From a virus (taxonomy: Duplodnaviria; Heunggongvirae; Uroviricota; Caudoviricetes): a stretch of 48,639 nt of DNA. The translations under genes were made by a program, and so were the position numbers. Below, in pieces: positions 27,544 to 48,639 of the stretch (the first letter of the stretch is position 1; the number at the start of each line of letters is the position of its first letter). A model generated the notes under the pieces. It saw only the letters and a list, made by a program, of their open reading frames with translations, searched no databases and was not told the origin of the DNA. The stretch covers positions 1 to 48,639 of the IMG/VR virus record IMGVR_UViG_2778261184_000002. One strand, written 5' to 3'.

Positions 27544-27936
27544 CTACCAGCGATATAAGCGAACGACGTGTTTTACCTTAGCGATCCACTTACCACGTGA
27601 GTTATTAATTACGGCCTGCGCCACCTTTAAGCTGACTTCAAAATCAGCCTTACGACCATCAGAATCCACCAGCGTTGCACCGTCTATTTCCGGCAGGCTT
27701 AAATAATCCTGTTCTACCTCTAATGGCATTGACGGCTCTCTGAATGGTGTCAATTGCCGAGCTTCCCAGATAAAGCGAACTCTCAATCCCCTATAAGCCA
27801 TTACCATGTAGCCTGTTATCGTGCTCTTATGGCCTGCCTCAGTACGCGCAGCATTACACGATACAATCTTACAGGTGACGATATTCCACTCCACATTGGA
27901 GACTTCGTGAATGCTTAATTTTGTTGTCTCGTACAT
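27544..27936 (-). CDS. Hypothetical protein
   Basis: 130-aa ORF; start overlaps upstream stop. Confidence 0.45.
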   Translation of the reverse strand: MYETTKLSIHEVSNVEWNIVTCKIVSCNAARTEAGHKSTITGYMVMAYRGLRVRFIWEARQLTPFREPSMPLEVEQDYLSLPEIDGATLVDSDGRKADFEVSLKVAQAVINNSRGKWIAKVKHVVRLYRW

Positions 27937-28511
27937 CAGAATGCCTCCCAGTCAGTTGCGATAATATCCACGCCAGTTGCGAACCAGTCTGTCTGCGCCT
28001 GTAAATCCCCATTCATCATTACCAGGCGAGGCATAACCATCACATCGCACCCTTCCACAATATCGAATGCCTCTTCCGGCAAGAATTCGAAGAGCTTTTC
28101 TTTGCTGCCAATGCTGCCACGGAACATCGATAAATAGCTCCCTTTAGGCCATGATGCCCGGCGGGCATCCAGCCCCTTCATCATCCAGAACATGGCGGCA
28201 GAAAAATTGATGTTCTTTTTGGCGATGAAAACATTATTGGCTTCTGTTTGCTTCAGAAACTTAATTAGCCTTGCCATCGACTCGGATAACGCTACGTATG
28301 GCTCATGATTGGCTGCGGACACGCTCACACCATGTAATCCAACACTGACTACCGTCATATCGCCGCTTTGAGCGGTTTCAATGTTGACACCTTTGCGAAC
28401 TAACGAGGCATAAAGTTCCTCTCGCTTTTGTGTCCAGCGTTCCCGCTGACCGATGAAGTCACTCAATATGAGATCTGCTTCTGCATACGCGTTATCGTTC
28501 GCCGTTAACAT
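27936..28511 (-). CDS. Protein with C-terminal DUF2829-like domain
   Basis: C-terminal half FSAAMFWMMKGLDARRASWPKGSYL...DIIATDWEAF. Confidence 0.45.
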   Translation of the reverse strand: MLTANDNAYAEADLILSDFIGQRERWTQKREELYASLVRKGVNIETAQSGDMTVVSVGLHGVSVSAANHEPYVALSESMARLIKFLKQTEANNVFIAKKNINFSAAMFWMMKGLDARRASWPKGSYLSMFRGSIGSKEKLFEFLPEEAFDIVEGCDVMVMPRLVMMNGDLQAQTDWFATGVDIIATDWEAF

Positions 28512-28964: not shown

Positions 28965-29040
28965 TGGTGGCCCCTACCGGATTTGAACCGATGACCGTGC
29001 GATTATGAGTCGCCTGCTCTAACCACTGAGCTAAGGGGCC
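28965..29040 (-). tRNA. tRNA-Ile (anticodon CAU, lysidine-type ileX-like)
   Basis: GGCCCCTTAGCTCAGTGGTTAGAGCAGGCGACTCATAATCGC...GGTTCAAATCC...GGGGCCACCA; clean cloverleaf, encoded CCA. Confidence 0.9.
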
Positions 29041-29482
29041 AATTAGTTTTTATTTTCGACGTCTGAGATTCTTCGTAACTTGTTCTATTCCGTAGACGAT
29101 CACAAGTAGAAACAGCAAAGACCATCCAGGGTTCTTATCGATATACGTCCAAAAATCCATCATTAGTTCCTGTGTTCACCTTACAGCACTGCCACTGAAA
29201 CCAACTATCCGAACAGTAGTTGTCACTCAATAGACGTGACGTATTTATTAGGTTGCGGTGCCGGGTGCCTCCCGGTGCCTGGCGAAGGTTGCACGCCAGG
29301 CGGGTGAGTATCCACAGAAGGCCGACTGTCAGTCTCAACCTTGACCCGCGTGCGCTTAGCCGCATTCACCGCAATGGTAAGAGCACTTGGCTGGCTGGGC
29401 GGCGATGATGCCTGTACGCATTTGGTGATCCGGTTCTGCTTCCGGCATTCGCTTAATTAGCCAAATACTCTTAACGTTGCGC

Positions 29483-29569
29483 TGGCGGAGAGTAATGGAA
29501 TCGAACCATCATCGCTTGCGCAATGGGACGGTTTTCAAGACCGCTTGAGCACCATGCTCCCTACTCTCC
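29483..29569 (-). tRNA. tRNA-Ser (anticodon UGA), class II with long variable arm
   Basis: GGAGAGT...CGGTCTTGAAAACCG anticodon arm, T-arm GATGGTTCGATTCCATT, acceptor ACTCTCC-G-CCA. Confidence 0.85.
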
Positions 29570-29714
29570 GGCCGTTGTGGTGGCCGGTACTGAATCTCCG
29601 GCATACGGTGCAGCCAATTAGGACTACGGACGATCACCGCTCGCGAAAGGGAAGGTTTGCGGCCGCATTTCCCTAACATCCAAGAAAGCTATCGCATCAG
29701 TCTGCGAATCCACC

Positions 29715-29806
29715 ACAACGTTGAGAACACTGGTTGTCACGCTGCAACGCAACATTTATTCGTAGATTGGGATATGACCCCGTTACGTCAGTGTTCTCAA
29801 CGTTGT
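29715..29806. repeat. Perfect 18-bp inverted repeat (ACAACGTTGAGAACACTG / CAGTGTTCTCAACGTTGT) with 56-bp loop
   Basis: Arms 29715-29732 and 29789-29806, inside the tRNA cluster. Confidence 0.8.
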
Positions 29807-30034
29807 AGTACCGGTTACGGTTCCGGCCAGGCCTCTTCCTCAACGGGGTATTCTCCATACGGACTACCGTTTATTGGTCGTTCCTGCGGTTTATGTTGTG
29901 AAGCCAGATGCTTATCTTCTGGTTGCTTCAAAGAGCTGCACTTCATCACAACGGTAAGGGTACTTCGTAGGGATTCGAACCCTCTGCCAAGCACGGCGAT
30001 CTCCGACGTCGCAAAATACCCTTACCTGTTGTGT

Positions 30035-30110
30035 TGGTGCCGATTAACGGACTCGAACCGCTGACATCCTGCTTACAAGGCAGGCGCTCTACCAACTGAG
30101 CTAAACCGGC
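30035..30110 (-). tRNA. tRNA-Thr (anticodon UGU)
   Basis: GCCGGTTTAGCTCAGTTGGTAGAGCGCCTGCCTTGTAAGCAGG...GGTTCGAGTCC...ATCGGCACCA. Confidence 0.9.
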
Positions 30111-30112
30111 AT

Positions 30113-30189
30113 TGGCGATGGTGGGTGGATTCGAACCACCGACCGACAGCTTAGAAGGCTGCTGCTCTATCCTACTGAGCTACACCATC
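30113..30189 (-). tRNA. tRNA-Arg (anticodon UCU; reads rare AGA/AGG)
   Basis: GATGGTGTAGCTCAGTAGGATAGAGCAGCAGCCTTCTAAGCTGT...GGTGGTTCGAATCCACC-CACCATC-G-CCA. Confidence 0.9.
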
Positions 30190-31438: not shown

Positions 31439-32650
31439 ATAAAGATCTTCTACGCCCCCATTCTTCTTGTCCCATTCGTTAGCCCACACCCGGCAGGCAT
31501 CAATAATTTCTTGACGACGGTCGCCCTGCATAAAGGGGATGCTTTCATGAAAACTACTTGGGATACAGGCCACGCTGAATACGGTATCAAACGCAGTCTG
31601 TTTGATAGCTTCCAACGTCTCTGGGCGCATTTTCAATTCATCGATCGGCGCATCCTTAGAGTCCATAATCCGGCGATGCAGGCGCGGGAAATCAGTCTCC
31701 AGGTACGCCATAATTTTATCTGCCAGGCATTCGTCTATATCGGTATTCCAGTCCGTTTCGAAGCCGGGCAGGCGATAGTAAAGCGGCGTTCCCCATACTG
31801 ATGGGATCACATCCATCGTCAGCAGGCGGTTGGTTCTAATTTGTTGATGGTAATTAGCCGTCAACAGAGCTTCACCACGCTGACCAGTCTCCGCAACCAG
31901 ACCATGCGGGTACTCATGGATATAGGCAATAGCATCCACCCCGTCATACATGAGCGGGAATGTCTCTGGCCTTTGTCCCATACCACAAGCGCGGTTCAGA
32001 TCATGACCAAGCTGTGAACACTCTCGTTTCAGCGTTTCAATAATGTTCTGCGCTGCTGCTAACTTTTTACGCAGTGTGACACCTTCGCCTTGATACTTAA
32101 TGCACTGCTGATTCAGCTCTGTTAAACGCTCTTTTAGTTCCCGACGCTCTCTTTTCAGCGCACGGTTATCCTTCTCCGCAACATCCAGTCGTTTTGACAG
32201 ACTGGCTGGATAGTCTTTTTTGTAACGACTCAAATCGGCTTCTGCGGATTTGCGCAGTGTGTTTGCCTGTTCAAGACGCGCTTCCAGATTGCCGATCTCA
32301 CTACGCATATTCGCGGCAAATTGATTAACAGCATTGCCAAGACTTTCAACTGTCGCTGATACGCCTGTGACTTGTGAAAAACGGATCAAGCCATCATTAA
32401 CGGCTTGTTGATATTCCTCAAACTGATCCACCAGCTTGTTGTAATCAACCGTCCCTTCCTCAAGTAGCTGGTTGATCTCCGCGACCAGGTTATCAGTAGT
32501 GGCAATGACGCTCTCATGTAGCCGTCTAGACAGGTCATCCCCCGGATTCCGCTTTTGAATAAGGGCGATCTGTGTCCGCAGCGTTTCAATCGCGGCTGAG
32601 ATGATTTCCAGATTAGAAGTATCAGTTTGTTGACTCATTGCAGTTCCCAT
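31430..32650 (-). CDS. Coiled-coil protein with C-terminal globular domain; function unknown
   Basis: 406-aa ORF (alternative start ATG 32638); heptad-rich N-terminal 220 aa; operator-like motif directly upstream. Confidence 0.5.
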   Translation of the reverse strand: MGTAMSQQTDTSNLEIISAAIETLRTQIALIQKRNPGDDLSRRLHESVIATTDNLVAEINQLLEEGTVDYNKLVDQFEEYQQAVNDGLIRFSQVTGVSATVESLGNAVNQFAANMRSEIGNLEARLEQANTLRKSAEADLSRYKKDYPASLSKRLDVAEKDNRALKRERRELKERLTELNQQCIKYQGEGVTLRKKLAAAQNIIETLKRECSQLGHDLNRACGMGQRPETFPLMYDGVDAIAYIHEYPHGLVAETGQRGEALLTANYHQQIRTNRLLTMDVIPSVWGTPLYYRLPGFETDWNTDIDECLADKIMAYLETDFPRLHRRIMDSKDAPIDELKMRPETLEAIKQTAFDTVFSVACIPSSFHESIPFMQGDRRQEIIDACRVWANEWDKKNGGVEDLYGK

Positions 32651-34627: not shown

Positions 34628-37600
34628 TTAGGCCGCATCGGCGATTATTTTACGCAGTTCATCTACCGAGTAACGCGTAGATACCATCCACGCCGGACGG
34701 TCAAAGTTCACATCAGCAACCGGGTTTGCTTCAAAATTCCAGAAACGCCCGCCAATCTTCTTAATCGCGTCTTTGGCGTTCCGTATTGTCGAGGAACCTG
34801 GCTGGTCGGCAATGAGATAAACCGCGCCAACGTCTTCGCTGACGCTCCACCAGCGCCCGCGAACACGCGCCTTAGCGCGAATCGGCTTATCATTAACCAC
34901 AATGATATAGTCATCATTCGCCGCTTCATCAGCTCTGGCTTCAGCCACTGCCGCCTGCTCTTCTCTTTTGCTTTCAGCCTGCTCAAGCCTTTCCGCGATC
35001 TCTGATTCAGTGGCCCCGCCGTTTTTCAGCGATACATAGTCCTGCCACGTTGCCGATTTGAGCGCATCCGGCAACTCATTCACATAGTCGCCGTCTTTCA
35101 ACTCACGGGCGCGACGGGTGGCCATTTCTACCAGGCGATTAACAGAAACAGCATCAGCAAAATCGTCCTTACTAATGTGTTTTTCATCAAATGCATTGAT
35201 GACAGCCCCCACCTTAATCCACTGCGCTGCTGGCGAATCCAGAGGATTATCGGCCTGAACAATGGCTAATTTCGCTCCATCGACACCATTATTAGCCAGC
35301 TGCTCCAATGCCGACCAGCCATCGGCATCGCTGAGTGATTTATATTGCTCAAACAATGCATCGCGCCAGGCCACCAGCGCAGCTCGTGTTTTCTCAATTT
35401 TCGCCGTAATTTTCGCGGCCTTCACCTGATTAAACATCCGTTCAATGTCATCAGTGTTGCTAAAGGCTTTCATCCTGCCCTGGAATAAACGGTATGCCAC
35501 CACGGTCTTCCAGAAAGATTCCAGCCCTTCTCCGGACGGTTTACGGAACAGGCTAAGAATATCTTCAGAAGTAACTTTATTAAGTGAGCGACCGGACAAA
35601 CCACGCCCTGCCATCCAGTTTTCAAACTCCTGGGAAACATCATCCATCGTGGCCTGTGACCCCCATGCCTGCATTCCCTGGATGTAATCATATCCATACA
35701 ATGCCTGGAGGAATCCCTCGCCGTCCACGACATTCAGCGGGTTATCACTGGCTTGTATTTTTGCCACTTCACGCTTCAGCGCCTCATCGTTGCCATCAGG
35801 GTAAATCCACCGCTCAGGCGCTATATCCGATGCTCGCCCGATTTTTTGACCTATTACGCCATCATAAGCCGATGACAGTGCAATCTGACCATCATCGGTG
35901 CGATAAGCCCAGTATTTAATAGCTGAACCACCGCCCCATACTCTACCAGGCTTCCCGGCAGTGACATTCATTACCCCATTGCGAATAGCATCATAGAACT
36001 GATCGCGCGTAAGTGTTGTTGATAGCTGGTGGCATTGAACACCACGTGCAGCTGTTTCACGCGATTCTGCAACTCCCTCTTCAAAGGTTACCGATTCAAT
36101 TATCAGGTTAAAGGGCAAAAATAATGCCGTCCCCGGAGAACGAGAGTAACGACTAGCCACATCCAGCCAGGATATGCGGCACGTACACCCGCCCCTTTCC
36201 GCATCAATGGCTGTAACACGAACAATTGCTGTCGTATTGTGATTCTCATCGATGATCGCGCGATAATGGCTGCCCTTGTGCAACAAGATATTTTTCTCAG
36301 TGCGTACATACTCCTGTGGGTTCTGCAATACATCGGCATCAAGCTCCAGAACCCCGGCTTTAATCGCACGTTCCAGATCACCACGAGAACGTTTCATAAC
36401 GGTGTCAGCGTCTTTAGCTCTGGTGATCGCAAAGCGTAGCTCCCGCACACGTTTTCTGTAGTCTCGCAACTGTTCCAGAACATATTTCTGCCCGTTCCTG
36501 TTCGTCCCCGCTTTAATCAGGTCGTCAAGATTGCGCTGGTAATGCTCTACCTGCTCCATCGCGCTTTTCAGTTCTGTCTCCATCATGCCGATATCTTTCC
36601 CGGCAGCATTCGCCGCTTTCAGGTAGTTATCGAGAGCATTATTGGCTTCGCGTAGGGCTTTCAGTTTCAGACGTTCTTCACGCTCTTGCGCCTGACGAGT
36701 CATGATTGCACGGCGTTCTTCCGGATTTGCCGCCAGCATAATGGCGCGTTCATCTGCGTCATCCGCATCACCATTGGCGATCTCTGACATGTCGGAGGTC
36801 ATCACCATATTGATCCAGTCCTTCTTACGTTTCAGCGTATCCAGACGGAAGTCATCAAATGTGCCTTTGCCACAATAGTAGTGAACATTGACCTTTTCTT
36901 GTGGTGAGCCTACCCGAGCGCCGCGCCCATTACGTTGGTCGATACTGGCAGGAGTCCAGGGTAGTGTCAGATGGTGGATATCGGTTGTCCCGATGTGCAA
37001 GTTAATACCTACTTCAGCCTTCTTGTTACAGATTATGATGCGCGTGCGACCTTCGTTATAGTCGGCGGCAATACCTTCCATGCCCTCAAGGCCAGCATCA
37101 TTTTTAGCTGAGAGATAATCCTCATATTGGGCAAGTTTGCTGTAGTAGGTTTCCCATGCACCTTCTTTGTATTCACCGTTTTTATTTGGCGTAGGTTCAG
37201 TCGGCTTATTCACCTTCTTCAGCTTGACGCCGCCAGCCTGGCTAACTGTCGTCGCATTGATAATGCCTATCTCCTGCTCCGGCATTTGCAGTGCACTGGC
37301 AATAATACGGCGCAGCTTCTGGTGCTGGGCTTTTTCATCAATGAAGACGATTTGTTTACCGTTCTTCAGACCTTCACGAAGGTTTTCGATCAGCGCGGCA
37401 TACTTCGGCGGGATGGGGTGTGATACCTGCTGCATATCAATACCGGCAGCCGCAATGGCCTTCAGTATTTCAGCTTCCAGTTCAATGCCAGCACGTATTT
37501 CAACATGCGACGGATGTTCGCTAAAGGTGGTCTTCACTACCTTGCTGGTACGCGTACTTACCAGCCCACCAGCGCCATCTTCTTCGGCCTCGTCTGCATC

Positions 37601-40600
37601 ATCTGCCACTTTACCGCCAGCTACTTTTGGCAGGGCATCAGCAATAGCTTTTACCTTGTCTGCAAGCTCAACGGGGAACTGGAATGTAATCGCACTGGCA
37701 TACAGATCAGGATCTATAGCAACCTTATCCATGTCGCGGATGATGGAGAAGATGAAATCATCCGGTTTTTCGTTTGTGATATGCCCGTTTTCATCGACCG
37801 TCAGCGCATCTTTACTACTTAACTCCTGTGCACGCTTACGAAGTTCTTCGTAAATGGCCTCTTGCTCTCCTGTCATCGGGATCTGCAAGGTATTCTCGAC
37901 AATATCAGGGATTTTTACCGTCGCCCCGACGTCCGCAGCAGTCTTCAGAGTAGTCCAGCGATGGAAAATACCACGCAGACCATCCAGGTTCTGGAAGCCC
38001 ACCAGTCCCTGCTTCTCTTCCACCTCACCGGAAATTTTCTGAACCTGAACTGTGGCTGTTTTACCGAACACGCGAACGAAATCATCCGGCGTAACAATAC
38101 CCATGCGCATCCACTCTTCCTGCGGAATGACAGTAGACAGCATGTTGAAAGCATCAATCGGGCTGTTCACCAGCGGTGTTGCCGTCAGCATAACCACACC
38201 ACGCCCGTTGTTGCGTTTCATCATGTACGCAGCTTTTACAGCCATGTCGCGGGCCATTTTGGATACTGCCGGGTTAGGCAAATATGCCAGTTGCCCCGCT
38301 TCGCGCCCGGCGCTAAAGGAGTTGCGGTAGTTATGCCCTTCGTCGGCAATTACGCTATCGAAGTTCATATCCTCAAAATACGGGATATTCTGCTTCTTCG
38401 TTGTACCGGTATTTGCGGCCTGGTCCTTAATCTTGTTCTTCTTCTGCGCGTCACGGTGTTTGCCAGATGCCAGGTCAAGACGCCCCATTTCCACAGCATT
38501 AAAGACCGCTTGCTGTGAGTTTTCCTCAATGGTTTCTTCTCGTAGCGGGATAGACGCGAATTGCTCTTTTGTCATGATGACCGTTCGCCAATTTGACGAC
38601 GGGATCATGTTCATGCGCTGAACGATAACGGCGCTGGCGGACTCTTTCACAACATTTCGGGTAAGAGCCTGCCCGTTACTGTCGAGGCGTGGTTCGCCAT
38701 TTTCATCAAGCACCGGCGCGGTCAGAATATTTCCGCTGTCATCACGAACTTCATCCAAACCGATAAACATCATATTGGCGAAGGCATCAGCACTGTAGAA
38801 ACTCTGTGCCTCGTGATACCAGTTCTGATAAACCGCCTTCGGAACAACAATACACGTGCGTTTAGTGCGACCTGTTTCGAAGTTATACGCCTCAAGCGCA
38901 AGCGCGGTCGTGGTTTTACCCAGCCCGGTGCCAAATCCCATGATGCCGCGCCCATCTTCTGATAAGCGACGAACTTCTTCATTCTGATAAGTCAGAGGAA
39001 TGCGCTTCCCACTAATCCCCTCCAGGCCAAGCGGTGCGTCAGAATGCGTAAACGGGATGAAGCCATTAAATGCGTCGTTATAGTCGCGGGCTATCTGATC
39101 AGCCTGCGGGTGAGTGCGTAACCAGTCGTTGAAGCTAATTTCCAGTTGAGCAATCTTATCCAGGTACTCGTTAGCGTTCTGCCCACGCGGTTTAATGCCG
39201 TTCAGGTAGTTTTCTAACTGGTTCAGGAAGCCGTCTTTATTGTTGGCCTTCTTGAACTCATTCCCGTTTTTGCCGTTTACGGTTCGTAGTTGATAGCCAG
39301 TAAATACCCCGTCCTTACCTTCGTAATCGTCCGGAGATACCAGAATGCCGTCCTCAACCTTAAGGTCGGGTTCTGTATACTTAAACTCGTCATAGCCCTG
39401 CTCTGCCAGGAACTCTTTTATCAAGCGGCGATCCAGCCAGCGGGCGTTCAGATTAACGGTGACTTTATTTAGTGGCGTGAAAATGCGTTTCTCTTCGATT
39501 TTCGCCAACTGACGCTCAAAGTTCGCTTTCTGCTCACCTGTTGACGCATCACGCCAGCCCACCAGCAATGCTGTTTTGGTTGCAATATCGCCGCTGGTGG
39601 CGCGGTCCATCGGCAGCAGGCAGCCATACCCATCAATAGCGATATCATCAAATTTCGCCAGGTATTCCAGAGCAGCATCGTCGTCTCCTGGCAGTTCGCC
39701 AGCAAACGCCTCACGAAAATCGTCCAGTGTGATTGGATTAAGTGCCACGTCACTGAAAAGGTGGGTTACAACTTGTTCCGGGCGTGTAAAGTCAATACCG
39801 GCAGCACCATCCGTTACATCAAGTCGTCCAGCAAGGAGGTCAGAAGCAGAGCCGTCCTGTTTCACGTTGCCAGTGAAAGTCATCCAGTTTTTAGCGCCAG
39901 CTTCAGCAATCCCATTCAGCTTAATCGCGTGCGGCGGACCATACTTCGCAATTTCGGCTTCCGCCAGGCGCGCGGCATCAGCAAGTACATCATCAACATT
40001 TTCCCCCAGATTACGCTTATCAAGCGCCTTGTTGATCAACTGCCCTATCAGTGCGCCGCGCATAACGCGTTCTCTGTCTTTTTCTCTCTGCTTGCCAGCA
40101 AAGCGAATCATTGCCGCTACTTCATCACTGATAACCGATGGATAGTCGGACGCGATCGCCGATATCTGGTCCCATGACAACGCCAGAATGCCATTTGTTG
40201 ACTGAAACGCGATCTGCAGATCACCAAACGTCGTAACACCATATCGATTTACATCAAGCGCGGAGGATTTGGTTGTCGCGTCCTTGACCCATTTCAGACC
40301 ATCAAACTCATGCCAGATGCCGCCTACAAGGCGTTTATCGCCCACTTTCGCGCCCTGCCATGCCTGAGTAGTTACGCCAAGCAAATCCCAATTAATGCGG
40401 CTTTCAAAGCGGCGCGATAGAGCGGTTTTCATCGACTCATTGGATACACGACCGTCCTTTTTCACCACCAGGGTATTGCGGAAGCTGGTACGCTCCATAT
40501 CGCCGTAAACAAATCGCTTCCCTTCGGTTGTAAACCATTTTCCTTTGAGGAAGGTATCCCAAAGGACGTTTGCCGATTTGAGCGTTGCATCATCCGTGTC

Positions 40601-41467
40601 GGGGATCATCTCCAGGAAGGTTTCCGGGTGTTTACGCAATACCCATACGTCCACCACGGTATCTGTACCGGATTCGCTGAACGTACCAGAAGGCATACGA
40701 TGTGCGCCCAAAAATTCCGCTTTACGGCTGACTTTATCGCGCAATTTTTTGTATTTCGTACCATCGGTCATGCCATTCGGCACCACCAATACAATTAGTC
40801 CACCAGGTTTAACCTTGTCGATCGTGCGCAACACAAAGTAATTGCCAACGTTCTTCTCGTTTGCATATGCCGGATCAAGCCCGGCAACGCCGGAACGCCC
40901 TTCACCAAACGGTACGTTACCAACAGCGTGGTCATACATTGCGTCTTTCGCCGCCAGCGCCTCAAACGCCCCGATATTCACATCGTCTTCCGGGTGCAAA
41001 AGCTGGTTTATTCGACCGGAAATCGGAGACAGTTCGGCGCTGGTCATTATCATGCCCTGCCGTTTTGTCTCCTGGAAAATACCTGTGCCCGCTGATGGTT
41101 CCAGTACGTGCCCACCATCAATACCGTAGTCAGCAAACAGATCCCATATACCTTCAGCCATAAACTGTGGCGTGTAGTATTCGTATTGGCTGCCCTCACC
41201 ATCTGTCAGGCCGCCCTCACCGGTATACCCGGCAAGAATCTGACGTTGTTCGTCAGTTAATTTCGCCCCATCGAAGCCGGGCGGAAGGGAATTAAGAAGA
41301 TTTACTGCGGCATTGTTTGCTGCCCGGCGTGTTTTCTGAATACTGACGCCATCGGCTTTCCTGACGCCAAAGGTCGCAACAGCACGTAATTTATGCAACC
41401 GACTAACAATTTCAATCAGTTCGCCTAAGCTGGAGGCTTCACTGATTGAATGAAGTAGTTTGTCCAA
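34628..41467 (-). CDS. darB: DarB-like giant protein: N-terminal N6-adenine methyltransferase-like domain plus SF2 (DEAH/SNF2-type) helicase core
   Basis: 2279 aa; MTase motif I LEPSAGTGIF and motif IV-like GNVPFG; helicase Walker A GFGTGLGKTT, DEGH box (VIADEGHNY), motif VI QRNGRGARVG; apparent TTG start with GAGGGGG RBS. Confidence 0.8.
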   Translation of the reverse strand: MDKLLHSISEASSLGELIEIVSRLHKLRAVATFGVRKADGVSIQKTRRAANNAAVNLLNSLPPGFDGAKLTDEQRQILAGYTGEGGLTDGEGSQYEYYTPQFMAEGIWDLFADYGIDGGHVLEPSAGTGIFQETKRQGMIMTSAELSPISGRINQLLHPEDDVNIGAFEALAAKDAMYDHAVGNVPFGEGRSGVAGLDPAYANEKNVGNYFVLRTIDKVKPGGLIVLVVPNGMTDGTKYKKLRDKVSRKAEFLGAHRMPSGTFSESGTDTVVDVWVLRKHPETFLEMIPDTDDATLKSANVLWDTFLKGKWFTTEGKRFVYGDMERTSFRNTLVVKKDGRVSNESMKTALSRRFESRINWDLLGVTTQAWQGAKVGDKRLVGGIWHEFDGLKWVKDATTKSSALDVNRYGVTTFGDLQIAFQSTNGILALSWDQISAIASDYPSVISDEVAAMIRFAGKQREKDRERVMRGALIGQLINKALDKRNLGENVDDVLADAARLAEAEIAKYGPPHAIKLNGIAEAGAKNWMTFTGNVKQDGSASDLLAGRLDVTDGAAGIDFTRPEQVVTHLFSDVALNPITLDDFREAFAGELPGDDDAALEYLAKFDDIAIDGYGCLLPMDRATSGDIATKTALLVGWRDASTGEQKANFERQLAKIEEKRIFTPLNKVTVNLNARWLDRRLIKEFLAEQGYDEFKYTEPDLKVEDGILVSPDDYEGKDGVFTGYQLRTVNGKNGNEFKKANNKDGFLNQLENYLNGIKPRGQNANEYLDKIAQLEISFNDWLRTHPQADQIARDYNDAFNGFIPFTHSDAPLGLEGISGKRIPLTYQNEEVRRLSEDGRGIMGFGTGLGKTTTALALEAYNFETGRTKRTCIVVPKAVYQNWYHEAQSFYSADAFANMMFIGLDEVRDDSGNILTAPVLDENGEPRLDSNGQALTRNVVKESASAVIVQRMNMIPSSNWRTVIMTKEQFASIPLREETIEENSQQAVFNAVEMGRLDLASGKHRDAQKKNKIKDQAANTGTTKKQNIPYFEDMNFDSVIADEGHNYRNSFSAGREAGQLAYLPNPAVSKMARDMAVKAAYMMKRNNGRGVVMLTATPLVNSPIDAFNMLSTVIPQEEWMRMGIVTPDDFVRVFGKTATVQVQKISGEVEEKQGLVGFQNLDGLRGIFHRWTTLKTAADVGATVKIPDIVENTLQIPMTGEQEAIYEELRKRAQELSSKDALTVDENGHITNEKPDDFIFSIIRDMDKVAIDPDLYASAITFQFPVELADKVKAIADALPKVAGGKVADDADEAEEDGAGGLVSTRTSKVVKTTFSEHPSHVEIRAGIELEAEILKAIAAAGIDMQQVSHPIPPKYAALIENLREGLKNGKQIVFIDEKAQHQKLRRIIASALQMPEQEIGIINATTVSQAGGVKLKKVNKPTEPTPNKNGEYKEGAWETYYSKLAQYEDYLSAKNDAGLEGMEGIAADYNEGRTRIIICNKKAEVGINLHIGTTDIHHLTLPWTPASIDQRNGRGARVGSPQEKVNVHYYCGKGTFDDFRLDTLKRKKDWINMVMTSDMSEIANGDADDADERAIMLAANPEERRAIMTRQAQEREERLKLKALREANNALDNYLKAANAAGKDIGMMETELKSAMEQVEHYQRNLDDLIKAGTNRNGQKYVLEQLRDYRKRVRELRFAITRAKDADTVMKRSRGDLERAIKAGVLELDADVLQNPQEYVRTEKNILLHKGSHYRAIIDENHNTTAIVRVTAIDAERGGCTCRISWLDVASRYSRSPGTALFLPFNLIIESVTFEEGVAESRETAARGVQCHQLSTTLTRDQFYDAIRNGVMNVTAGKPGRVWGGGSAIKYWAYRTDDGQIALSSAYDGVIGQKIGRASDIAPERWIYPDGNDEALKREVAKIQASDNPLNVVDGEGFLQALYGYDYIQGMQAWGSQATMDDVSQEFENWMAGRGLSGRSLNKVTSEDILSLFRKPSGEGLESFWKTVVAYRLFQGRMKAFSNTDDIERMFNQVKAAKITAKIEKTRAALVAWRDALFEQYKSLSDADGWSALEQLANNGVDGAKLAIVQADNPLDSPAAQWIKVGAVINAFDEKHISKDDFADAVSVNRLVEMATRRARELKDGDYVNELPDALKSATWQDYVSLKNGGATESEIAERLEQAESKREEQAAVAEARADEAANDDYIIVVNDKPIRAKARVRGRWWSVSEDVGAVYLIADQPGSSTIRNAKDAIKKIGGRFWNFEANPVADVNFDRPAWMVSTRYSVDELRKIIADAA

Positions 41468-41560
41468 AGGATTTCCCCCTCTAAACCGTAAAAAATTCCG
41501 CTATGCGGTACGGTTGAGAGGGTATGGAGAATGTTATTTTCAGGGGGACGATACTACCGT

Positions 41561-41574
41561 CAAAATCACATACT
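41561..41574 (+). promoter_or_regulatory. Candidate late-promoter element CAAAATCACATACT
   Basis: 44 bp upstream of CHAP-hydrolase ATG; near-identical element (CAAATCACATACT) 41 bp upstream of the portal-like gene on the minus strand (47578-47590). Confidence 0.3.
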
Positions 41575-41618
41575 CCCCATAGTTTGCCTACTTATTAACC
41601 CATGACCGGGAGAAAAAT

Positions 41619-42104
41619 ATGGCAAACATTGAACCTCGCTGGCTAATTGAAGCCCGTAAGCACATTGGCCTGACTGAAATAAAAGGCGCTAAACACAACC
41701 CTGAAATCGTTCAGTTCTGGCGCGACATCAAGCGCGGCGGAATTAAAGACGATGAAACGCCGTGGTGCGCAGCATTTGTCGGTGCAATGCTGGAACGTGT
41801 AGGCATCCGCTCAACAAGATTTGAGTCGGCAAAATCCTATCTGGATTGGGGCGAGAAATTAGATACACCGGCATACGGATGTATCGTTGTATTTACCCGC
41901 GTAGGCGGTGGGCACGTAGGCTTCGTTGTCGGACGCCGTGCCAATGGCGATCTGCTTGTCCTGGGTGGGAACCAGGGGGATGCTGTTAATATTCGCGCAT
42001 TCCCAACATCAAGAGTGTCTGGCTATCGCTGGCCTGCTGGCGAACCACGCAATACCGCTCTGTTACCAGTCGGAGACGCAGCAACCTCAACTAATGAGGC
42101 ATGA
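41619..42104 (+). CDS. CHAP/NlpC-P60-type cell-wall hydrolase (endolysin-like)
   Basis: 161 aa; catalytic-Cys context PWCAAFVGAML and His context GGHVGFVVG. Confidence 0.6.
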   Translation: MANIEPRWLIEARKHIGLTEIKGAKHNPEIVQFWRDIKRGGIKDDETPWCAAFVGAMLERVGIRSTRFESAKSYLDWGEKLDTPAYGCIVVFTRVGGGHVGFVVGRRANGDLLVLGGNQGDAVNIRAFPTSRVSGYRWPAGEPRNTALLPVGDAATSTNEA

Positions 42105-42131
42105 AAAAAGCCCCGGCCAGGCCGGGGCATC
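42104..42131 (-). terminator. Rho-independent terminator (minus strand)
   Basis: GCCCCGGCC-ag-GCCGGGGC hairpin followed on the minus strand by T6. Confidence 0.6.
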
Positions 42132-42136
42132 ACGCT

Positions 42137-42337
42137 TCAATTCACGATCCAATCATTACCGACTATATCAGCCGTCGATAAATCAACTTCCCGGATCTGG
42201 AGTCCATTAATACAAAACCATCCGGTAGTAGAGTAATTATCAGGCCAGGCCCATACACCAACACTCCATGCTTTACGGCGGCACACTTCAGCCTGTCCTT
42301 CCCTGATTTTTTTTACCGCCTGCATGATGTCCATCAC
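42137..42337 (-). CDS. DUF2829-like small protein
   Basis: 66 aa; VCRRKAWSVGVWAW ... NDWIVN. Confidence 0.5.
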   Translation of the reverse strand: MMDIMQAVKKIREGQAEVCRRKAWSVGVWAWPDNYSTTGWFCINGLQIREVDLSTADIVGNDWIVN

Positions 42338-43040
42338 TCACCTCCCCAACCGATCACCTGGAATTGCCCCATTTTGGGGTGATACCAGCGTTTTCCTCGG
42401 TGTTCAGCCTCCGACATCATCCGGTTAAAAGCATTCATGAAGGGAGATAAGGCCACGATGGAACGACGCAACAATACCCCCTCTGGAGTTAAAAACTCAT
42501 GTGTATCGGTGGGGATCCGGTAAGCGTTAACCAGGTTGCGACATTTGGCTTCGGTCAGGCCGCATTTTGCCGCCAGCTGGCGGTAGCCAATGTAACCTTC
42601 CGGCATGTTGCCCTTCTTGATTTGCTCGACGGTTTCTACCACCTGGCTAACCTTTGACTCAACAACATGAAGCCGCTTTTGCTGCTGAACTGCATTTGCA
42701 GCCATTGCGGCGATCATCTCTATTTCGGTCAACGGCTGGCGTGCTTGTTCTTCCAGTTCGCGCCAGCGGTCCACCAGCCGGGCAGTAAACTCAGGACAAA
42801 GCTGTGCGACTACAATGATACTGTCTCGTTTGCCTTGCTCGTCGCTAAATCGGAACACCTGAATTAATCGAGAACGCCCCATTACATCTATTTTTGGTTC
42901 ATCCTCAATTTGAGGACGAACAATAACGCCGGATTCGGCTAATGTTTCAATGGTACGCTTCACATTGTCATGACGTTTTCCCACCAGCTCCGCGATCTCA
43001 ATGCTGGTCATTGATGGCTTTTCAAGAATGCAGATATCCA
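42334..43040 (-). CDS. Rha-family phage regulatory protein (antirepressor candidate)
   Basis: N-terminal TSIEIAELVGKRHDNVKRTIETL signature; start placed at ATG 43040, abutting icd-like stop. Confidence 0.6.
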
Positions 43041-43265
43041 TCAGTGTGCCTCCGCAATTCCGGGATTGGTAATATTGCGATACCAAGGATTAGTGTTTGG
43101 TTGTGATGAAGTAGAGAAACGGCCAGTCAGGACGCCATGTTGATCAGGGATCAGAGAACGGGCTTCTTTTTCAGTTGCGGCAATTGCGAAGTGATCGCAG
43201 TGTTTTTGCAGGGAGTGGAAACGCCAGATGAATTCTGGACGTGAGCAAGGATTGGCATTAACCAT
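43041..43265 (-). CDS. icd: Icd-like small protein
   Basis: EFIWRF...AIAATEKEARSLIP signature; followed directly by Rha/Ant-like gene, as icd-ant in P1 immI. Confidence 0.55.
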   Translation of the reverse strand: MVNANPCSRPEFIWRFHSLQKHCDHFAIAATEKEARSLIPDQHGVLTGRFSTSSQPNTNPWYRNITNPGIAEAH

Positions 43266-43267
43266 AG

Positions 43268-43400
43268 TTACGGCCTCACTAACAGGTTTAACAACCTGCT
43301 ACCCGCTGTCAAACAGGTGGCAGGACGTGACAGGGTTGACAGACTGGCGTTAGTGAAACCAGCAGGCCGAAGCCTCCCCATCACGCCCCACCATAATTCG
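43268..43400 (-). ncRNA. Candidate c4-like antisense/structured RNA region upstream of icd
   Basis: Nested inverted repeats (CCTCACTAAC/GTTAGTGAAA; CTGTCAA/TTGACAG; CAGGTGG) between operator-like site and icd start. Confidence 0.3.
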
Positions 43401-43594
43401 GGCGTAACGCGGTTTACGGACACAAAAATACCGCAATATCGGAAATCTGCGGTTGTCCGCACTAACATTCAGGCTGTCAAACCTGGTCGCAGAATTTGCT
43501 ACGACGGCATGAATATAAGCCTGAAAACATGGAAGATCAACTAAAAATTTCAGCAATGGATGACTTCAGTCGATGATGCAGATCATACATTCCG

Positions 43595-43624
43595 ATTTAG
43601 AAACGGCAAATTAATTTTCTAACA
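43595..43624 (-). promoter_or_regulatory. 30-bp composite operator-like site (TGTTAGAAAATTAATT-N7-TCTAAAT on minus strand)
   Basis: Upstream of the c4-like/icd/ant module, analogous to P1 Op51. Confidence 0.5.
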
Positions 43625-43678
43625 CAAAATGTCGAGCGAGCATTTTCCGATCATTGGGATGTTTTGTAGACGCACAGG

Positions 43679-44641
43679 TCATCCCCTAAAGCCAGCCGGG
43701 ATTGACCAATCCTCACGGTCAAATTCAGACCGATAGCCACGCTGTTTCATCAGGTCAAAGGCTTCACCAATGGTTGCACACCCCTGGGAGCCAGAATAAT
43801 CCATTGAGAAATCCAGGGCACTGGATTGTTTAGGCTTATTCACTGCGGTAGCGGCACTACGTATCCATGCAAATTTTTTTGCCAGCTTTTCAGCGGTACG
43901 ATACAGAGCCTGCCGTTTTGTGTGCCCCTCGTCTGAACGACGCTTTGCAGCTCTCGCTTTTGCCGCCGCCAGGCAGTGGTTGGTCTGTTCTTCCCTGATT
44001 ACTGTTTTTTTATCCAGTACCCCGTTATCCGTTTGAGAACTATCTGCTGGTGAAGCCTTTGGCTGAACCGCGCATGATCTTTCTCTTCTTTTGGCTATAG
44101 AGTGACTCTTATTTTCTATTGGCTGTTCATTTTGAACATGGGGGGACTTGTTCAATTTGAACAGGGGGTTCCCAGTTTCAAAAAAATAACGAACCTTTGA
44201 AATCAACTGCTTAACCAGTTTTGTGGCGTTGGCAAATTTGATGCCCTGCTTACCCCCTATCTCCATTGCTACATGAATGAAGTGGAGAAATAGTGTCGTA
44301 AACCGATATACGTTACACACCTGGGCATTGTTATTCGCTACCTGATGTTGCTTAACAAGCATTCCGCACTTCGTCGCTTCAGCAAATGCCCGGCGTACAG
44401 TAGAAATACTGCGTCCTGTAATCTCGGACATATCAGCATATGAGCGACGGATCATGTATTCATCGGTAGACCCTGCCAGGTTGGCGAACTCGGCAATAAT
44501 GGCGCTATGTGAAGGGGAAAGAAGACCGCTATGACGAGCAAAAAAACTCAACTGATGACCTTTGATTTTTTTGTGGTATTCAGTGTTGTTTTTATACTCA
44601 GAAGTGTTGAAAGTTACTGAAACTGAATTTAAAATATTCAT
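43679..44641 (-). CDS. Hypothetical HTH-containing protein
   Basis: 320 aa; HTH-like MSEITGRSISTVRRAFAEATKCGML. Confidence 0.45.
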   Translation of the reverse strand: MNILNSVSVTFNTSEYKNNTEYHKKIKGHQLSFFARHSGLLSPSHSAIIAEFANLAGSTDEYMIRRSYADMSEITGRSISTVRRAFAEATKCGMLVKQHQVANNNAQVCNVYRFTTLFLHFIHVAMEIGGKQGIKFANATKLVKQLISKVRYFFETGNPLFKLNKSPHVQNEQPIENKSHSIAKRRERSCAVQPKASPADSSQTDNGVLDKKTVIREEQTNHCLAAAKARAAKRRSDEGHTKRQALYRTAEKLAKKFAWIRSAATAVNKPKQSSALDFSMDYSGSQGCATIGEAFDLMKQRGYRSEFDREDWSIPAGFRG

Positions 44642-44814
44642 CAGATAGTTCCGTGCAAAAATCTATCTACCGTATAAATCTATGCCAGTGGATTTATACA
44701 CCAAAAAGCCGCTTCTCAGCGGCTTTTGCTTTTTTTGGCAGTCGCTACCGGAGCAGTGACCGCGATCCTACTCGATCACATCGGACAGGATCAACAGTGT
44801 ATATAAATACACTA

Positions 44815-44831
44815 TGTTAGAAATTTAATTT
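44815..44831 (+). promoter_or_regulatory. Operator-like motif copy (TGTTAGAAATTTAATTT) preceded by near-palindrome AGTGTATATAAATACACT
   Basis: Intergenic between pro-like and the 320-aa gene. Confidence 0.4.
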
Positions 44832-44841
44832 CATGCAGCGG

Positions 44842-45840
44842 TTATCCCCGTCGCGAAACGAAGAGTAATGGGGTAGTATTTTTGCTCTCCTTCGGCGATA
44901 ACTCCGGCTCTTTCTTGCCTGATATCGGCAAGCCATAAGTCGCATTTGCCCCCAGAGATTCAAGCATCGCAGCCACTATGCGAGCATCATCTTCAGACTG
45001 CATACGGCAGAGCGCCCGACGCTGTTCTGCGCTGATAAAAACAGGCAGCTCCTGGATAGCATCACGCAAAATCCTACGGCATTTCTTCGCATCTTCGCCC
45101 TGGCTTTCCATCATTGCGGCCTGGTTGCGTAATTTGTCGCGAAGTTGCATATTTTCCACTTCAAGGAGCATCAATTCTGACTCAAGGGCTTCACGCTGTG
45201 CTGACTCGAAAATAGCCTGCTGATTCTTCATTGCTGAAAAGTGGTGAACAAGATCCGTAGCCGCGTTATCGGTAAAACCTTGTTCGATAAGTGCCGCATG
45301 AATAGCCGCGTCGCGCTCTTCTGCTGATTCCAGCATCAGACTTTTCTTGTCGAGGCTGATATAGTTAGGCACAGTTACGTAATCAAAGCCGTGGAAAGAC
45401 TTTACCAGGGATACCGATGAATCTGGACCAGATGTAGCCCACGACCAACCACCAGCACCAGAGTTAATCATGCCCTGAACAATACGCCCGGTGTCTGTAT
45501 CCAGTATTTCCTGCGTATGAGTAACAATGCCGTTGTCGTCAATCGAAATGTCGATAGTCCTGTTTGACGGCACGTTCTCCAATACAACAGGCTTCCCATC
45601 TACCATCACAACAGAGACTTCCGGCAAGTTCAGGCTTTTCGTTTTGTTATAGTGCATCGCCCGGCGACCATGACCGTAATAACCATACATCTCACCCAGC
45701 GCGATACGCTCTTTTGTTTCTGGCGAGTTGAATGTGTCTCGTACCGACTGAATGACGTAATTTCGGTTGTTCTGCGGTGTGTGTTTGCGGATTTTCTCTA
45801 CCAGGGAGAAGCGATCCGTAACAGTATTCAGTGATTGCAT
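44842..45840 (-). CDS. Head morphogenesis protein (Pro-like protease/scaffold candidate)
   Basis: 332 aa; follows portal-like gene by 14 nt; C-terminal coiled coil. Functional call by synteny only. Confidence 0.35.
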   Translation of the reverse strand: MQSLNTVTDRFSLVEKIRKHTPQNNRNYVIQSVRDTFNSPETKERIALGEMYGYYGHGRRAMHYNKTKSLNLPEVSVVMVDGKPVVLENVPSNRTIDISIDDNGIVTHTQEILDTDTGRIVQGMINSGAGGWSWATSGPDSSVSLVKSFHGFDYVTVPNYISLDKKSLMLESAEERDAAIHAALIEQGFTDNAATDLVHHFSAMKNQQAIFESAQREALESELMLLEVENMQLRDKLRNQAAMMESQGEDAKKCRRILRDAIQELPVFISAEQRRALCRMQSEDDARIVAAMLESLGANATYGLPISGKKEPELSPKESKNTTPLLFVSRRG

Positions 45841-45853
45841 TATTTCCCTCCGG

Positions 45854-47536
45854 TTAATTGCTCATCACAAATTTTGCAAAGTTTATTAACTGTTCTGGCG
45901 TCCAGTTTTCCGGATCGTCACCGGACGACAACGGCGCGGATTCGTACATACCATGCTCGTTGTTTTGCTCTGATTCATTCGCCTTAAACTCTTTGATCAT
46001 GGTGTTGAGAGTGTCATCGTCGATGTGCAACTGCTCAGTGAACAGATAACGCATAAACGCGTCGCTACCAGCCAGTTTCGGGTTGTTCTGGATCTGGTCC
46101 ATAATTTGGGAGATGACAGCAACAAAGTTGGCGCGTGCATCCAGTTCTCGGTTTTCCTCTTCCTGGATAGCAGTGTTCATTGAGTTGAATTGCACGTCAT
46201 AAGGGCGGTTTGTTTCGGTGTAAACCTTGCCGTATTTATAAGCGAGGTGAATGTCCAGAAGCCGATAAATAGTTCGCTGGGCGGCCTGTCTGATCCAGTT
46301 CGCACGCAATGCAGCCTGGATAGCAGTTTGCTGCCAGCCGCCTTCTCCAAGCCCTCCGCTCATCTGATCAGCCCAGCCAAGCATTGTTGCGTCAATGCCG
46401 AGGCTTGCAGCAAGCTGCCGGAGGTGAAACATAACGTCTTCGATACCACTGATATCTGCGGGTATGGATTGCGTATCAATGGTGATGCCGTTCTTCCCGT
46501 CTCCCATAACAGGTATCAGATGGTTAAGCACAGTCGGAATAGCGTTGGCATTAATCGACCTTTGCGCCACCAGGTCACTATGACGCTTCAATGCCTGGCT
46601 GACGCCACGCGTATAGTTCGCCGCATTAACCGGGTCCAGTGTGTTCGTCGTAAGAGCAATCAGGCGGTCAATTTTGGCTGCATTATTTCGCGTTGATTTC
46701 AGCGCGGCGAGCGAAGCACATAAATTAAGGTAAGGTTCATAGCTGTATTCCAGGAATGAAGTTCCGTAATTCTGCGTCTCCATTAACGGCTTATCAGCCT
46801 GATCACTTAACAGTGAATACCCTTTTGTACCGTAGCTAACCGGAATAACCTTATGCTGCGGCGTCCAATACGGGTTTTTCATGGAAACAAGATTCCACGG
46901 TTCGGTTATTACCCTGCGCAAACTATGCGTATCCAGAATGTAATCACCACTAAAACCGACCAGCTGGCTACCGCGATAAAATTCCTGGACGAAGTGTGGA
47001 AGAGTGTAATAACTGGATTCAATGCCAGTTATCCCTCTGCCCTGTTCAGCATAAGGTCGGACATAAGACACCCCAAAGATCGCCATAATCATGGCCCATG
47101 AAGGAAGTCCGTCATTAATCATTGCCCCCAAATCAGCTGTTAACTCTTCACACCTACTTACCGCCTCGGCATCGGAACCATCTTTTGGCGAAAGCATGAA
47201 TGCCAGCCCGGTTTTCTTTGAAGGCGCAAGCGCATGTGCAATATGAATGTTTAAAGCCGTTGAGATAGTCGGGCTTTTAGCCATCGTTTCCAGGATGTTG
47301 TACTTTTGCAGGCGCTCGCCGGGCAGTTCAGCGGATAAAGAAATTGAATCTGCTGCACTCGTCATGCCATCGCTGTTGCTACCCAGGATGCCTGGACGTA
47401 AAGCGGACAGGCCGGAACGAGCAACGACACTATGCCCGCTCGTAAAAACGACCGGATCGGCGGGCGTAACATCACCACCGTTGAAGGCTTTCTTCAATGC
47501 CGACAGAAAGCCTTTGTTTTTGTCTTTCGTTGCCAT
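45854..47536 (-). CDS. Portal protein candidate (Prt-like)
   Basis: 560 aa; size and position beside pro-like and darB-like genes. Confidence 0.4.
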   Translation of the reverse strand: MATKDKNKGFLSALKKAFNGGDVTPADPVVFTSGHSVVARSGLSALRPGILGSNSDGMTSAADSISLSAELPGERLQKYNILETMAKSPTISTALNIHIAHALAPSKKTGLAFMLSPKDGSDAEAVSRCEELTADLGAMINDGLPSWAMIMAIFGVSYVRPYAEQGRGITGIESSYYTLPHFVQEFYRGSQLVGFSGDYILDTHSLRRVITEPWNLVSMKNPYWTPQHKVIPVSYGTKGYSLLSDQADKPLMETQNYGTSFLEYSYEPYLNLCASLAALKSTRNNAAKIDRLIALTTNTLDPVNAANYTRGVSQALKRHSDLVAQRSINANAIPTVLNHLIPVMGDGKNGITIDTQSIPADISGIEDVMFHLRQLAASLGIDATMLGWADQMSGGLGEGGWQQTAIQAALRANWIRQAAQRTIYRLLDIHLAYKYGKVYTETNRPYDVQFNSMNTAIQEEENRELDARANFVAVISQIMDQIQNNPKLAGSDAFMRYLFTEQLHIDDDTLNTMIKEFKANESEQNNEHGMYESAPLSSGDDPENWTPEQLINFAKFVMSN

Positions 47537-47620
47537 GAATCACCGCGAATTGTTTCCAGTTTCGCGGCAGCATAATCAGTATGTGATTTGATAGGAGAGT
47601 TTTATTGGTGCTGTTAATGA

Positions 47621-47953
47621 TTACTTACACGCTTCCCTGCCCACATAGTCAGCGATGGAACCACTTACAATCCCCCCCATTTTGGGATCAGGTTTTGAAT
47701 TTTTCATCTGTTCAAGCGTCTCCCCAGAACCAAGATACTTCACTTCATTTGTCATGCAATTATATATTCTCTTCGAATATGCTGTCCCAGATGGGCCTTC
47801 CCTTTTTGTAATGATAGTTTTATATTCACCTTCACGACCAATATCCAGCACTGTATAAGTAGCTTTTGGATCAGAAGGGATTTTTATCTTATAGGGCGCA
47901 GCACAAACTGATGCAGAAGCTAATAAAGCACAAACCAGGATTATATTTCTCAT
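47621..47953 (-). CDS. Small secreted protein (AT-rich moron)
   Basis: 110 aa; signal peptide ILVCALLASASVCAAP; markedly lower GC than flanks. Confidence 0.45.
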   Translation of the reverse strand: MRNIILVCALLASASVCAAPYKIKIPSDPKATYTVLDIGREGEYKTIITKREGPSGTAYSKRIYNCMTNEVKYLGSGETLEQMKNSKPDPKMGGIVSGSIADYVGREACK

Positions 47954-47997
47954 AACTATACTCCATGTTATAAATTATCAAAGCTAAGTAAGTAAAA

Positions 47998-48555
47998 CTA
48001 ATCTGGATCAACAATAAGTTGTGAAACCTTCGCTGCAAGTCTTATATAGCGTTCAGCTTCATTTCTGGTGATTTCAAAATCCAGAAAGTGCGCGGCTTCA
48101 TTTCTTAGCGAGCGAAGCCGTTTTAACAGCAAAGCAGCGGAATCTTCAAGTTTTCCTTCTTGAATCAACCAGTCAATGAATAGTTCTGGATTCCGTTTCG
48201 GCTTTAACCCTCCCTGTATAAAACCAGAGCGCCCGGCAGCCTCCTCTACCATCAACCATGACTCCATAATAGCAGCTCTAGGTGAAAAATCAGCAATTCT
48301 CTCTAATTGTGCGATTTTATTTATATATTCAGAGTTATTATTGCCATTGTTAATATTTTTATTCCCAACTGATGCATCTGTTGCTAATACTTCTGCTGCG
48401 GTTAGTCCCGCATTAAACTCAGCTTCAGCTGCTCCAATCTTGAATCTACTCAGACGTACTATTAACTCCTTAATATCAACCCCATACTTATTAACAAACC
48501 ACACAAACACCAATGGCCATGCAAGAGCTGAAACCAAATCTGTAAATGATGACAT
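47998..48555 (-). CDS. Membrane-anchored protein with HEPN-like Rx4H motif (abortive-infection-type candidate)
   Basis: 185 aa; N-terminal hydrophobic helix (LVSALAWPLVFVWFV); C-terminal LRSLRNEAAHF; AT-rich. Confidence 0.35.
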   Translation of the reverse strand: MSSFTDLVSALAWPLVFVWFVNKYGVDIKELIVRLSRFKIGAAEAEFNAGLTAAEVLATDASVGNKNINNGNNNSEYINKIAQLERIADFSPRAAIMESWLMVEEAAGRSGFIQGGLKPKRNPELFIDWLIQEGKLEDSAALLLKRLRSLRNEAAHFLDFEITRNEAERYIRLAAKVSQLIVDPD

Positions 48556-48639
48556 CGGTTATCCTCATTCATTATATTCTCAGCTAGTTTACATATTATT
48601 AAACAGGAACAAAAATGAATTATGCGCCCATCTTCAGAT

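Follow-up and report, generated by a model that had tools for sequence, protein, structure and literature searches.

Conserved box next to the -10 hexamer at probable late promoters of a D6-type plasmid prophage

The 48,639 nucleotides (nt) of viral DNA analysed here (IMG/VR record IMGVR_UViG_2778261184_000002, positions 1 to 48,639; the window) contain two copies of a short element, one upstream of a gene for a CHAP-type peptidoglycan hydrolase and the other upstream of the portal gene. Both elements probably act as late promoters in a plasmid prophage of the D6 type and would be activated in a cascade resembling that of phage P1, dependent on the phage protein Lpa. Escherichia phage D6 is a P1-related plasmid prophage (MF356679 record), and its genome is 97% identical to positions 41000-48639 of the window over the full length. 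The identities of the genes around the boxes were taken from the GenBank annotation of D6. The evidence consists of a motif family in D6 and in the window, the placement and orientation of its members, their conservation among relatives, and the identity of the lpa gene product.

The earlier note on this DNA had located the two copies as CAAAATCACATACT at 41561-41574 on the plus strand and CAAATCACATACT at 47590-47578 on the minus strand, and both were found there. The last base of the first copy lies 44 nt before the hydrolase start codon (ATG 41619) and that of the second lies 41 nt before the portal start codon (ATG 47536), in agreement with the distances reported. The exact core common to both copies is the 12-mer AAATCACATACT, which occupies 41563-41574 (+) and 47589-47578 (-), respectively. 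The -10-like hexamer said to follow within 4 nt begins in both copies exactly 3 nt past the 12-mer; it reads CATAGT for the hydrolase gene (41578-41583, +; 35 nt before the ATG) and TATGCT for the portal gene (47574-47569, -; 32 nt before the ATG). The hydrolase gene (41619-42104, +; CHAP/TIGR02594) is annotated in D6 as a putative peptidoglycan hydrolase, and its product contains a Pfam CHAP domain at 31.4 bits (cutoff 26). Downstream of the second box, the gene at 45854-47536 (-) matches the D6 portal gene, and the head-processing gene pro comes after it. The two copies by themselves are not statistically significant. A shuffle test on the pair alone gave 3 matches against 1.39 expected, which was equalled in 19 of 100 shuffles, and pairs of identical 12-mers number 397 in the window. 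The test that counts is therefore the presence of further copies before other structural genes.

Such copies are present both in D6 and in the window. The 140 nt upstream of each of the morphogenesis, lysis and neighbouring genes of D6 were inspected for the box, and a 21-nt weight matrix comprising the box, the 3-nt gap and the hexamer was used to scan the D6 genome. The scan revealed 11 sites with scores of 19-28, while the next best match scored 10.6. All 11 strong sites are intergenic, compared with an intergenic share of 10.5% for the D6 genome, and all are oriented towards the next gene. The genes downstream are R, mat, pmgB, prt, the hydrolase gene, gene 7, lydA, darB, upfC, ddrB and gene 23; in nearly every case the next gene is a head, tail, lysis or Dar gene. 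The distance between the end of the hexamer and the start codon ranges from 25 to 52 nt at ten of the sites and is 137 nt for mat. A weaker variant of the box precedes gene 26 of D6. In a motif-blind count over the intergenic segments of D6, AAATCAC was the joint most widely shared 7-mer (13 of 55 segments), tied with TTTCTAA, the core of the motif resembling a C1 operator that is described below.

The matrix built from all D6 sites detected five sites in the window with scores of 23-27; the next match scored 10.0, and the maxima of shuffled sequences averaged 13.0, the highest being 21.7. The hydrolase and portal promoters each score 27.0. The third site (41519-41539, -; score 23.0; D6 equivalent 19171-19191) is a divergent promoter upstream of the darB homologue (34628-41467, -) and consists of the box AAATAACATTCT (41539-41528), cca and the hexamer TACCCT (41524-41519). 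Because the boxes for darB and the hydrolase gene lie on opposite strands within 41468-41618, this interval would hold two back-to-back divergent late promoters. The fourth site, upstream of the mat homologue (3224-3244, -; score 26.0; D6 equivalent 72100-72120), reads AAATAACAAACT gca CATAAT. The fifth is a late-type promoter upstream of lpa (27466-27486, -; score 23.0), which reads AAATAACATTCT cat TATCAT and also stands ahead of the overlapping pacA/pacB. The best match below the threshold is the weak variant before the gene 26 homologue (2138-2158, -; score 10.0), which reads ATTTCACACCCT gca TACAGT, lies 31 nt before the ATG at 2106, and is unchanged in five D6-like plasmids. With a cross-validation matrix built from the seven D6 sites outside the window-equivalent region, the same five sites were the top five of the window (15.5-22.5), with the next match at 10.5 and shuffle maxima averaging 13.6 (highest 16.9).

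The significance thus derives from the box family, not from the pair. If the resemblance between the two upstream sequences were a coincidence without function, the number of shared 12-mer pairs and the shuffle result for the pair would be as observed; however, the 11 D6 sites stand far above background, are all intergenic (about 0.105 to the 11th power if placed at random) and are all correctly oriented, the cross-validation recovers the sites in the window, and the box is conserved across genera. A chance origin of the pair is scarcely credible in view of these results and is effectively refuted.

The consensus of the D6 promoters is AAATCACAnACT-N3-nAnnnT. All 11 sites agree at box positions 1-4 and 6-8 and have A2 and T6 in the hexamer, whose first position is T, C or G. 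The two bases of greatest importance in a sigma-70 -10 element are A2 and T6, and both are unchanged in 29 of 29 sites when three lineages are pooled. If transcription starts about 7 nt past the hexamer, the box is located at approximately -27 to -16, with its centre near -22 (-21.5). The proposal of a late-promoter box that depends on an activator is supported by the family, which precedes late genes and lacks a -35 element, but it needs two corrections: the box is situated between the places of the -35 and -10 elements and not at -35, and its sequence is not that of the P1 box. A consensus scan detected no sigma-70 -35/-10 pair in the right orientation at the hydrolase or portal site. Visual comparison of TTGACA with the hexamers located 16-18 nt upstream of each -10 gave agreement at 1-2 of six positions. 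No dyad symmetry was found in the D6-type box. A search of the whole window against Rfam at the gathering threshold returned no family at the box sites; the only matches were two C4 antisense RNAs, a c4-a1b1 target, isrK and transfer RNAs (tRNAs).

Directly past the portal -10 hexamer, an inverted repeat was observed at 47542-47568 (-), with the structure GCCGCGAA-(11 nt)-TTCGCGGT. In the D6 version a compensatory change from G:C to A:T keeps the stem. Most of the 5' arm would be absent from a transcript starting about 7 nt past the hexamer.

The conservation of the boxes was analysed among D6-like plasmids, about 120 of which, complete and from Escherichia, Salmonella and Shigella, match these regions in PLSDB. 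The hydrolase upstream region was aligned for seven D6-like plasmids, including one from Enterobacter, one from Shigella and two with an extra inserted gene. The only long invariant block in this alignment was AAATCACA, flanked by unrelated sequences, and it is kept even where the upstream DNA is unrelated or carries the inserted gene. The darB box on the opposite strand is kept in the relatives that retain this gene arrangement. The portal upstream region is matched by 120 plasmids, only 14 of them over most of its length. For nearly all of the remaining plasmids listed, the match starts at query position 112, which is the first base of the box, and the DNA upstream of this point (the 47589/47590 boundary) is unrelated and carries unrelated genes. 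The portal promoter moves together with the portal module, and the shared boxes might serve as short homologies for mosaic exchange.

This boundary pattern, together with the insertions and replacements that adjoin the box in the hydrolase upstream region, would also be expected if the conserved 12-mers were mainly recombination junctions at module boundaries, kept by mosaic exchange and not for the control of transcription. However, recombination would leave unexplained the constant 3-nt gap before a hexamer in which A2 and T6 never vary, the orientation, the distance of 25-52 nt to the start codon and the restriction to late genes, whereas a module that moves with its own promoter yields the same boundaries. 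We therefore consider it very improbable that the boxes are mainly junctions, and favour their function as promoters.

A further thirteen relatives, more distant and with 55-66% identity in the portal protein, were found in Citrobacter, Pantoea, Enterobacter, Rosenbergiella, Xenorhabdus and Serratia, and several of them contain similar boxes before portal, pro or ddrB. In a Pantoea plasmid examined as a whole, AAATTACArACy-N3-TAC..T precedes the endolysin, holin, pacA, pro, mat and capsid genes, and in a whole Citrobacter plasmid AAAnnACArACy-N3-TAnnnT precedes 11 late genes. The architecture common to these two relatives is AAAnnACAnACy-N3-TAnnnT, and the pooled consensus of 29 sites is AAAnnACAnACn-N3-TAnnnT. 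Since the same box occurs in the Pantoea and Citrobacter plasmids, the box class belongs to a broad non-P1 branch of these elements and is not confined to D6.

Other relatives showed different sequences before the portal gene. The boxes in Serratia and Xenorhabdus relatives seem to be additional variants that differ in spacing. At loci L009-L012 (about 9930-9960, +) of the Pantoea and Enterobacter relatives, ATTGCAyAAAGC-N3-TAnnnT was found before portal and not the late box. This sequence resembles a P1 C1 operator (ATTGCTCTAATAAATTT), and the portal gene may thus be controlled differently in these relatives.

The open reading frame (ORF) at 27043-27435 (-) had been named as an lpa-like candidate, and this assignment was upheld by three lines of evidence. 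The protein matches the Pfam family PF25716 BPP1_LPA with 190 bits (cutoff 35; E = 2.5e-56), it is similar to P1 Lpa (31% identical by BLAST, 27% in an alignment), and the gene corresponds to D6 orf4, which is annotated as similar to P1 lpa. In the alignment, the Lpa of the window is 82% identical to that of another E. coli plasmid and 41% identical to that of a Pantoea plasmid; the Lpa of the Citrobacter plasmid is 37% identical. A structure model based on 12 homologues had a mean predicted local distance difference test score (pLDDT) of 81, and the block-averaged pLDDT exceeded 90 over approximately residues 10-70 and was 88 for the first ten residues. The model predicts an N-terminal domain of three helices and a beta-hairpin wing, a disordered linker and a long C-terminal helix. 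The solved structures that come closest to the model are without exception DNA-binding domains of the winged-helix type, among them Fur, forkhead, PadR and MarR, with a root-mean-square deviation of 2.2 Å over about 70 residues and a match probability of about 1. The predicted winged-helix fold fits direct recognition of the box by Lpa, although it is not proof.

The region upstream of lpa contains a second type of motif. The sequence ATTTTCTAATA at 27514-27524 (-) is a copy of ATTTTCTAAYA, and it appears to overlap a possible sigma-70-like promoter, read by eye as TTAGAT-17-TAATAT. With up to one mismatch, ATTTTCTAAYA occurs 11 times in the window, against 2.4 copies expected, at positions 5517, 6172, 9677, 21636, 23037, 27514, 31261, 32667, 33709, 43614 and 44815. 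It precedes early-type genes, including lpa, c1, repL and two icd/ant regions, and the copies are probably the C1 operators of the element. The late box itself was also considered as a C1 operator and rejected, as the operator-like ATTTTCTAAYA sits elsewhere and overlaps no late box. Because pacA overlaps lpa, the late-type box upstream of lpa might allow lpa and the terminase genes to be expressed late, in a self-reinforcing manner.

Taken together, these features suggest the following cascade, in which P1 serves as the model for the action of Lpa at the box, for the start sites and for the late timing. When C1 repression is lost, lpa would be transcribed from its operator-covered early promoter. 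Lpa, with its winged helix and C-terminal helix, would then recognise the box beside the -10 hexamer and enable the host RNA polymerase to begin transcription about 7 nt past the hexamer. This would turn on some dozen late units at once. They would comprise the head units portal-pro and gene 23; the tail units R-S-U, pmgB, genes 7-24-6-5 and gene 26; the lysis units (hydrolase and lydA/B); the packaged Dar proteins (darB and ddrB-darA); and mat.

Several points weigh against this interpretation. The P1 literature is divided on what Lpa binds. In one account, the P1 late genes require Lpa and a conserved 9-bp (base pair) repeat is the Lpa-binding site, so that Lpa binds DNA (PMC10695390), and in another Lpa is presented as a factor that binds RNA polymerase, and the polymerase only (PMC8198154). 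The P1 box is a 9-bp inverted repeat, AAGTGACTT, whereas the D6-type box is the asymmetric 12-mer AAATCACAnACT, and the gap between box and -10 is 4 nt in P1 and 3 nt in D6-type promoters. Because of this asymmetry and the 3-nt spacing, the mode of recognition may differ from that in P1. The Lpa proteins of D6 and of the Pantoea and Citrobacter plasmids are only about 40% identical, yet they go with one box class. The structural matches to the Lpa model have weak E-values (about 0.01 or worse). The darB box is overlapped by a sigma-70-like TTGACG-16-GAAAAT, and darB may therefore also have its own activator-independent promoter. Finally, the late box upstream of lpa, which is of the consensus form AAATAACATTCT in the window, is not conserved in D6 itself, where it reads TTTTAACATTCT (D6 4584-4604), and it reads TATTAACAAGCT in another E. 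coli plasmid; this variation may be a natural polymorphism in lpa self-activation.

The polymerase-binding description of P1 Lpa, the asymmetry of the box and the pairing of nearly the same box with divergent Lpa proteins would also agree with a different arrangement, in which the promoters are real and the box is read by a factor other than Lpa. This factor could be a phage or host DNA-binding protein, or the RNA polymerase itself with an unusual spacer element, while Lpa would act elsewhere or on the polymerase only. However, every box-carrying genome examined also encodes an Lpa-family protein, the box is placed relative to the -10 hexamer in the same way as the P1 element tied genetically to Lpa, and Lpa has a predicted DNA-binding fold. 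In addition, the box is distinct from the over-represented C1-operator-like ATTTTCTAAYA and never overlaps it. A reader other than Lpa accordingly seems unlikely to us, and recognition of the box by Lpa remains the preferred explanation. Across lineages, the relation between Lpa sequence and box sequence is consistent but weak, P1 differing in both.

Further features were observed in the window. Rfam identified two C4 antisense RNA genes at 4769-4856 and 43313-43398 (-), a c4-a1b1 target at 43466-43518 that is paired with one C4 RNA, and an isrK-like RNA at 4901-4979; on this evidence, anti-repressor control of the immI type would be present in two regions of the element. Two genes upstream of lpa, the ORF at 27936-28511 (-) encodes a protein with a Tad2-like (Thoeris anti-defence 2) domain (E = 1.5e-9), a homologue of which is labelled MW1434 family type I toxin in RefSeq. 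ARAGORN detected four tRNA genes within 28965-30189 (-), namely Met-CAT, Ser-TGA, Thr-TGT and Arg-TCT; at the corresponding place, three tRNAs (Ser, Thr and Asn) are recorded for D6, on the plus strand. A pmgS homologue, for which relatives carry the label of an RNA polymerase alpha C-terminal domain, was considered and dropped, as Pfam gave only sub-threshold coiled-coil matches.

The searchable full-text literature yielded nothing relevant on a D6 box or on D6 together with Lpa, and neither expression nor reporter data for these promoters; the D6 genome paper (Gilcrease and Casjens 2018) was outside the reach of this search, and it may contain a prior description. The GenBank records of D6 have no annotated promoter features. 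The mechanism is known from P1, and the additions made here are the sequence of the box with its asymmetry and spacing, the catalogue of sites and the occurrence of the box across genera; the advance is a refinement of a known mechanism and not a new one. D6-like plasmid prophages are widespread, and so far their late regulation has been assumed from P1. The D6-class box provides a testable map of the late transcription units and predicts which genes are late. The hydrolase is predicted to be among them, and it would therefore be the endolysin. The Lpa system would comprise at least two recognition classes, and the pairing of box and Lpa could lend itself to studies of how a site between -35 and -10 is read by a small winged-helix activator, and of whether related co-resident prophages cross-activate one another.

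In P1, late transcription depends on Lpa and the host SspA. P1 and the D6-type element are alike in that both are plasmid prophages with an Lpa-family gene behind a C1-type operator (in P1, Olpa over Plpa), and in both, late promoters are numerous and scattered, and they combine a sigma-70 -10 hexamer and a conserved box centred near -22 with the lack of a -35 element. In the P1 record (AF234172), a '-22 region' and a -10 are marked for each of the eleven annotated late promoters, and the extracted sequences follow aAC-AAGTGACTT-N4-TAnAAT. Most of the strong D6 sites are located where P1 has annotated Lpa-dependent late promoters, and seven genes correspond: LPpro stands before prt, LPlyz before the lysozyme gene, LPdar before lydA, LPs before R, LP23 before gene 23, LP26 before gene 26 and LPmat before mat, and D6-type boxes precede the same genes or functional analogues. 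Other Lpa-dependent late promoters of P1 include LPsit and LPpac, and P1 lpa is gene 10. Compared with P1, D6 has additional box promoters before darB, ddrB, upfC and gene 7, and it has no box promoter between lpa and pacA, where the genes overlap. The Lpa proteins of P1 and the D6-type element are 27-31% identical. The two boxes are of different classes. A matrix built from nine annotated P1 late promoters, with which the P1 sites score 22.5-28.9, gave no match at any box site in D6 or the window, and the D6-type sites were therefore rejected as P1 boxes. A loose alignment of the P1 and D6 boxes (AAnnA-GT-nACT and AAnnA-CA-nACy) needs a 2-nt shift relative to the -10 and serves as a lead only.

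Each element also contains a site of the other class. The P1 matrix detected a single P1-type box in the window, GGC-AAGTGACTT-TCAT-TAATCT at 2218-2239 (+), with a score of 18.5; the D6 copy (GAC...), likewise the only one in that genome, scores 23.7, which falls among the scores of genuine P1 late promoters. The site is unchanged in five D6-like plasmids and lies about 60 nt before a hydrophobic ORF of 44 amino acids at 2299-2433 (+), which corresponds to D6 orf77. Conversely, P1 (AF234172, locus L002) has a D6-class site at 31571-31591 (-), AAATCACAAAGT-aca-TACCGT, with a score of 21.6. The gene downstream, whose start is 39 nt away, is the holin-like lydC, for which no promoter is annotated; the flanks of the site showed no DNA similarity to D6. 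Speculatively, D6-type and P1-type prophages might form two mutually insulated pairs of activator and box, with one 'foreign' promoter in each that senses the activator of the rival and answers with a membrane-damaging protein, but we consider this improbable. If it were true, co-resident elements would not fire each other's late genes.

The D6-type promoters may also be compared with those of phages Mu and lambda. The middle and late promoters of Mu, which depend on Mor and C, have a recognisable -10 and a poor -35, and Mor and C are small phage DNA-binding activators that bind just upstream of, or overlapping, the -35 region and turn on several dispersed late operons. They belong to a different protein family and bind dyad-symmetric sites further upstream (about -35 to -50), and to our knowledge neither the Mu activators nor their sites have any sequence relationship to the Lpa family or the D6-type box. 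At the lambda promoter PR', the phage late regulator Q reads DNA in the promoter spacer between -35 and -10, which is the same place as that of the D6-type box. Lambda Q acts by antitermination: at one constitutive promoter, it modifies a polymerase that has paused. The D6-type system has about a dozen promoters without a -35 element, which suggests, unlike lambda Q, the activation of transcription initiation.

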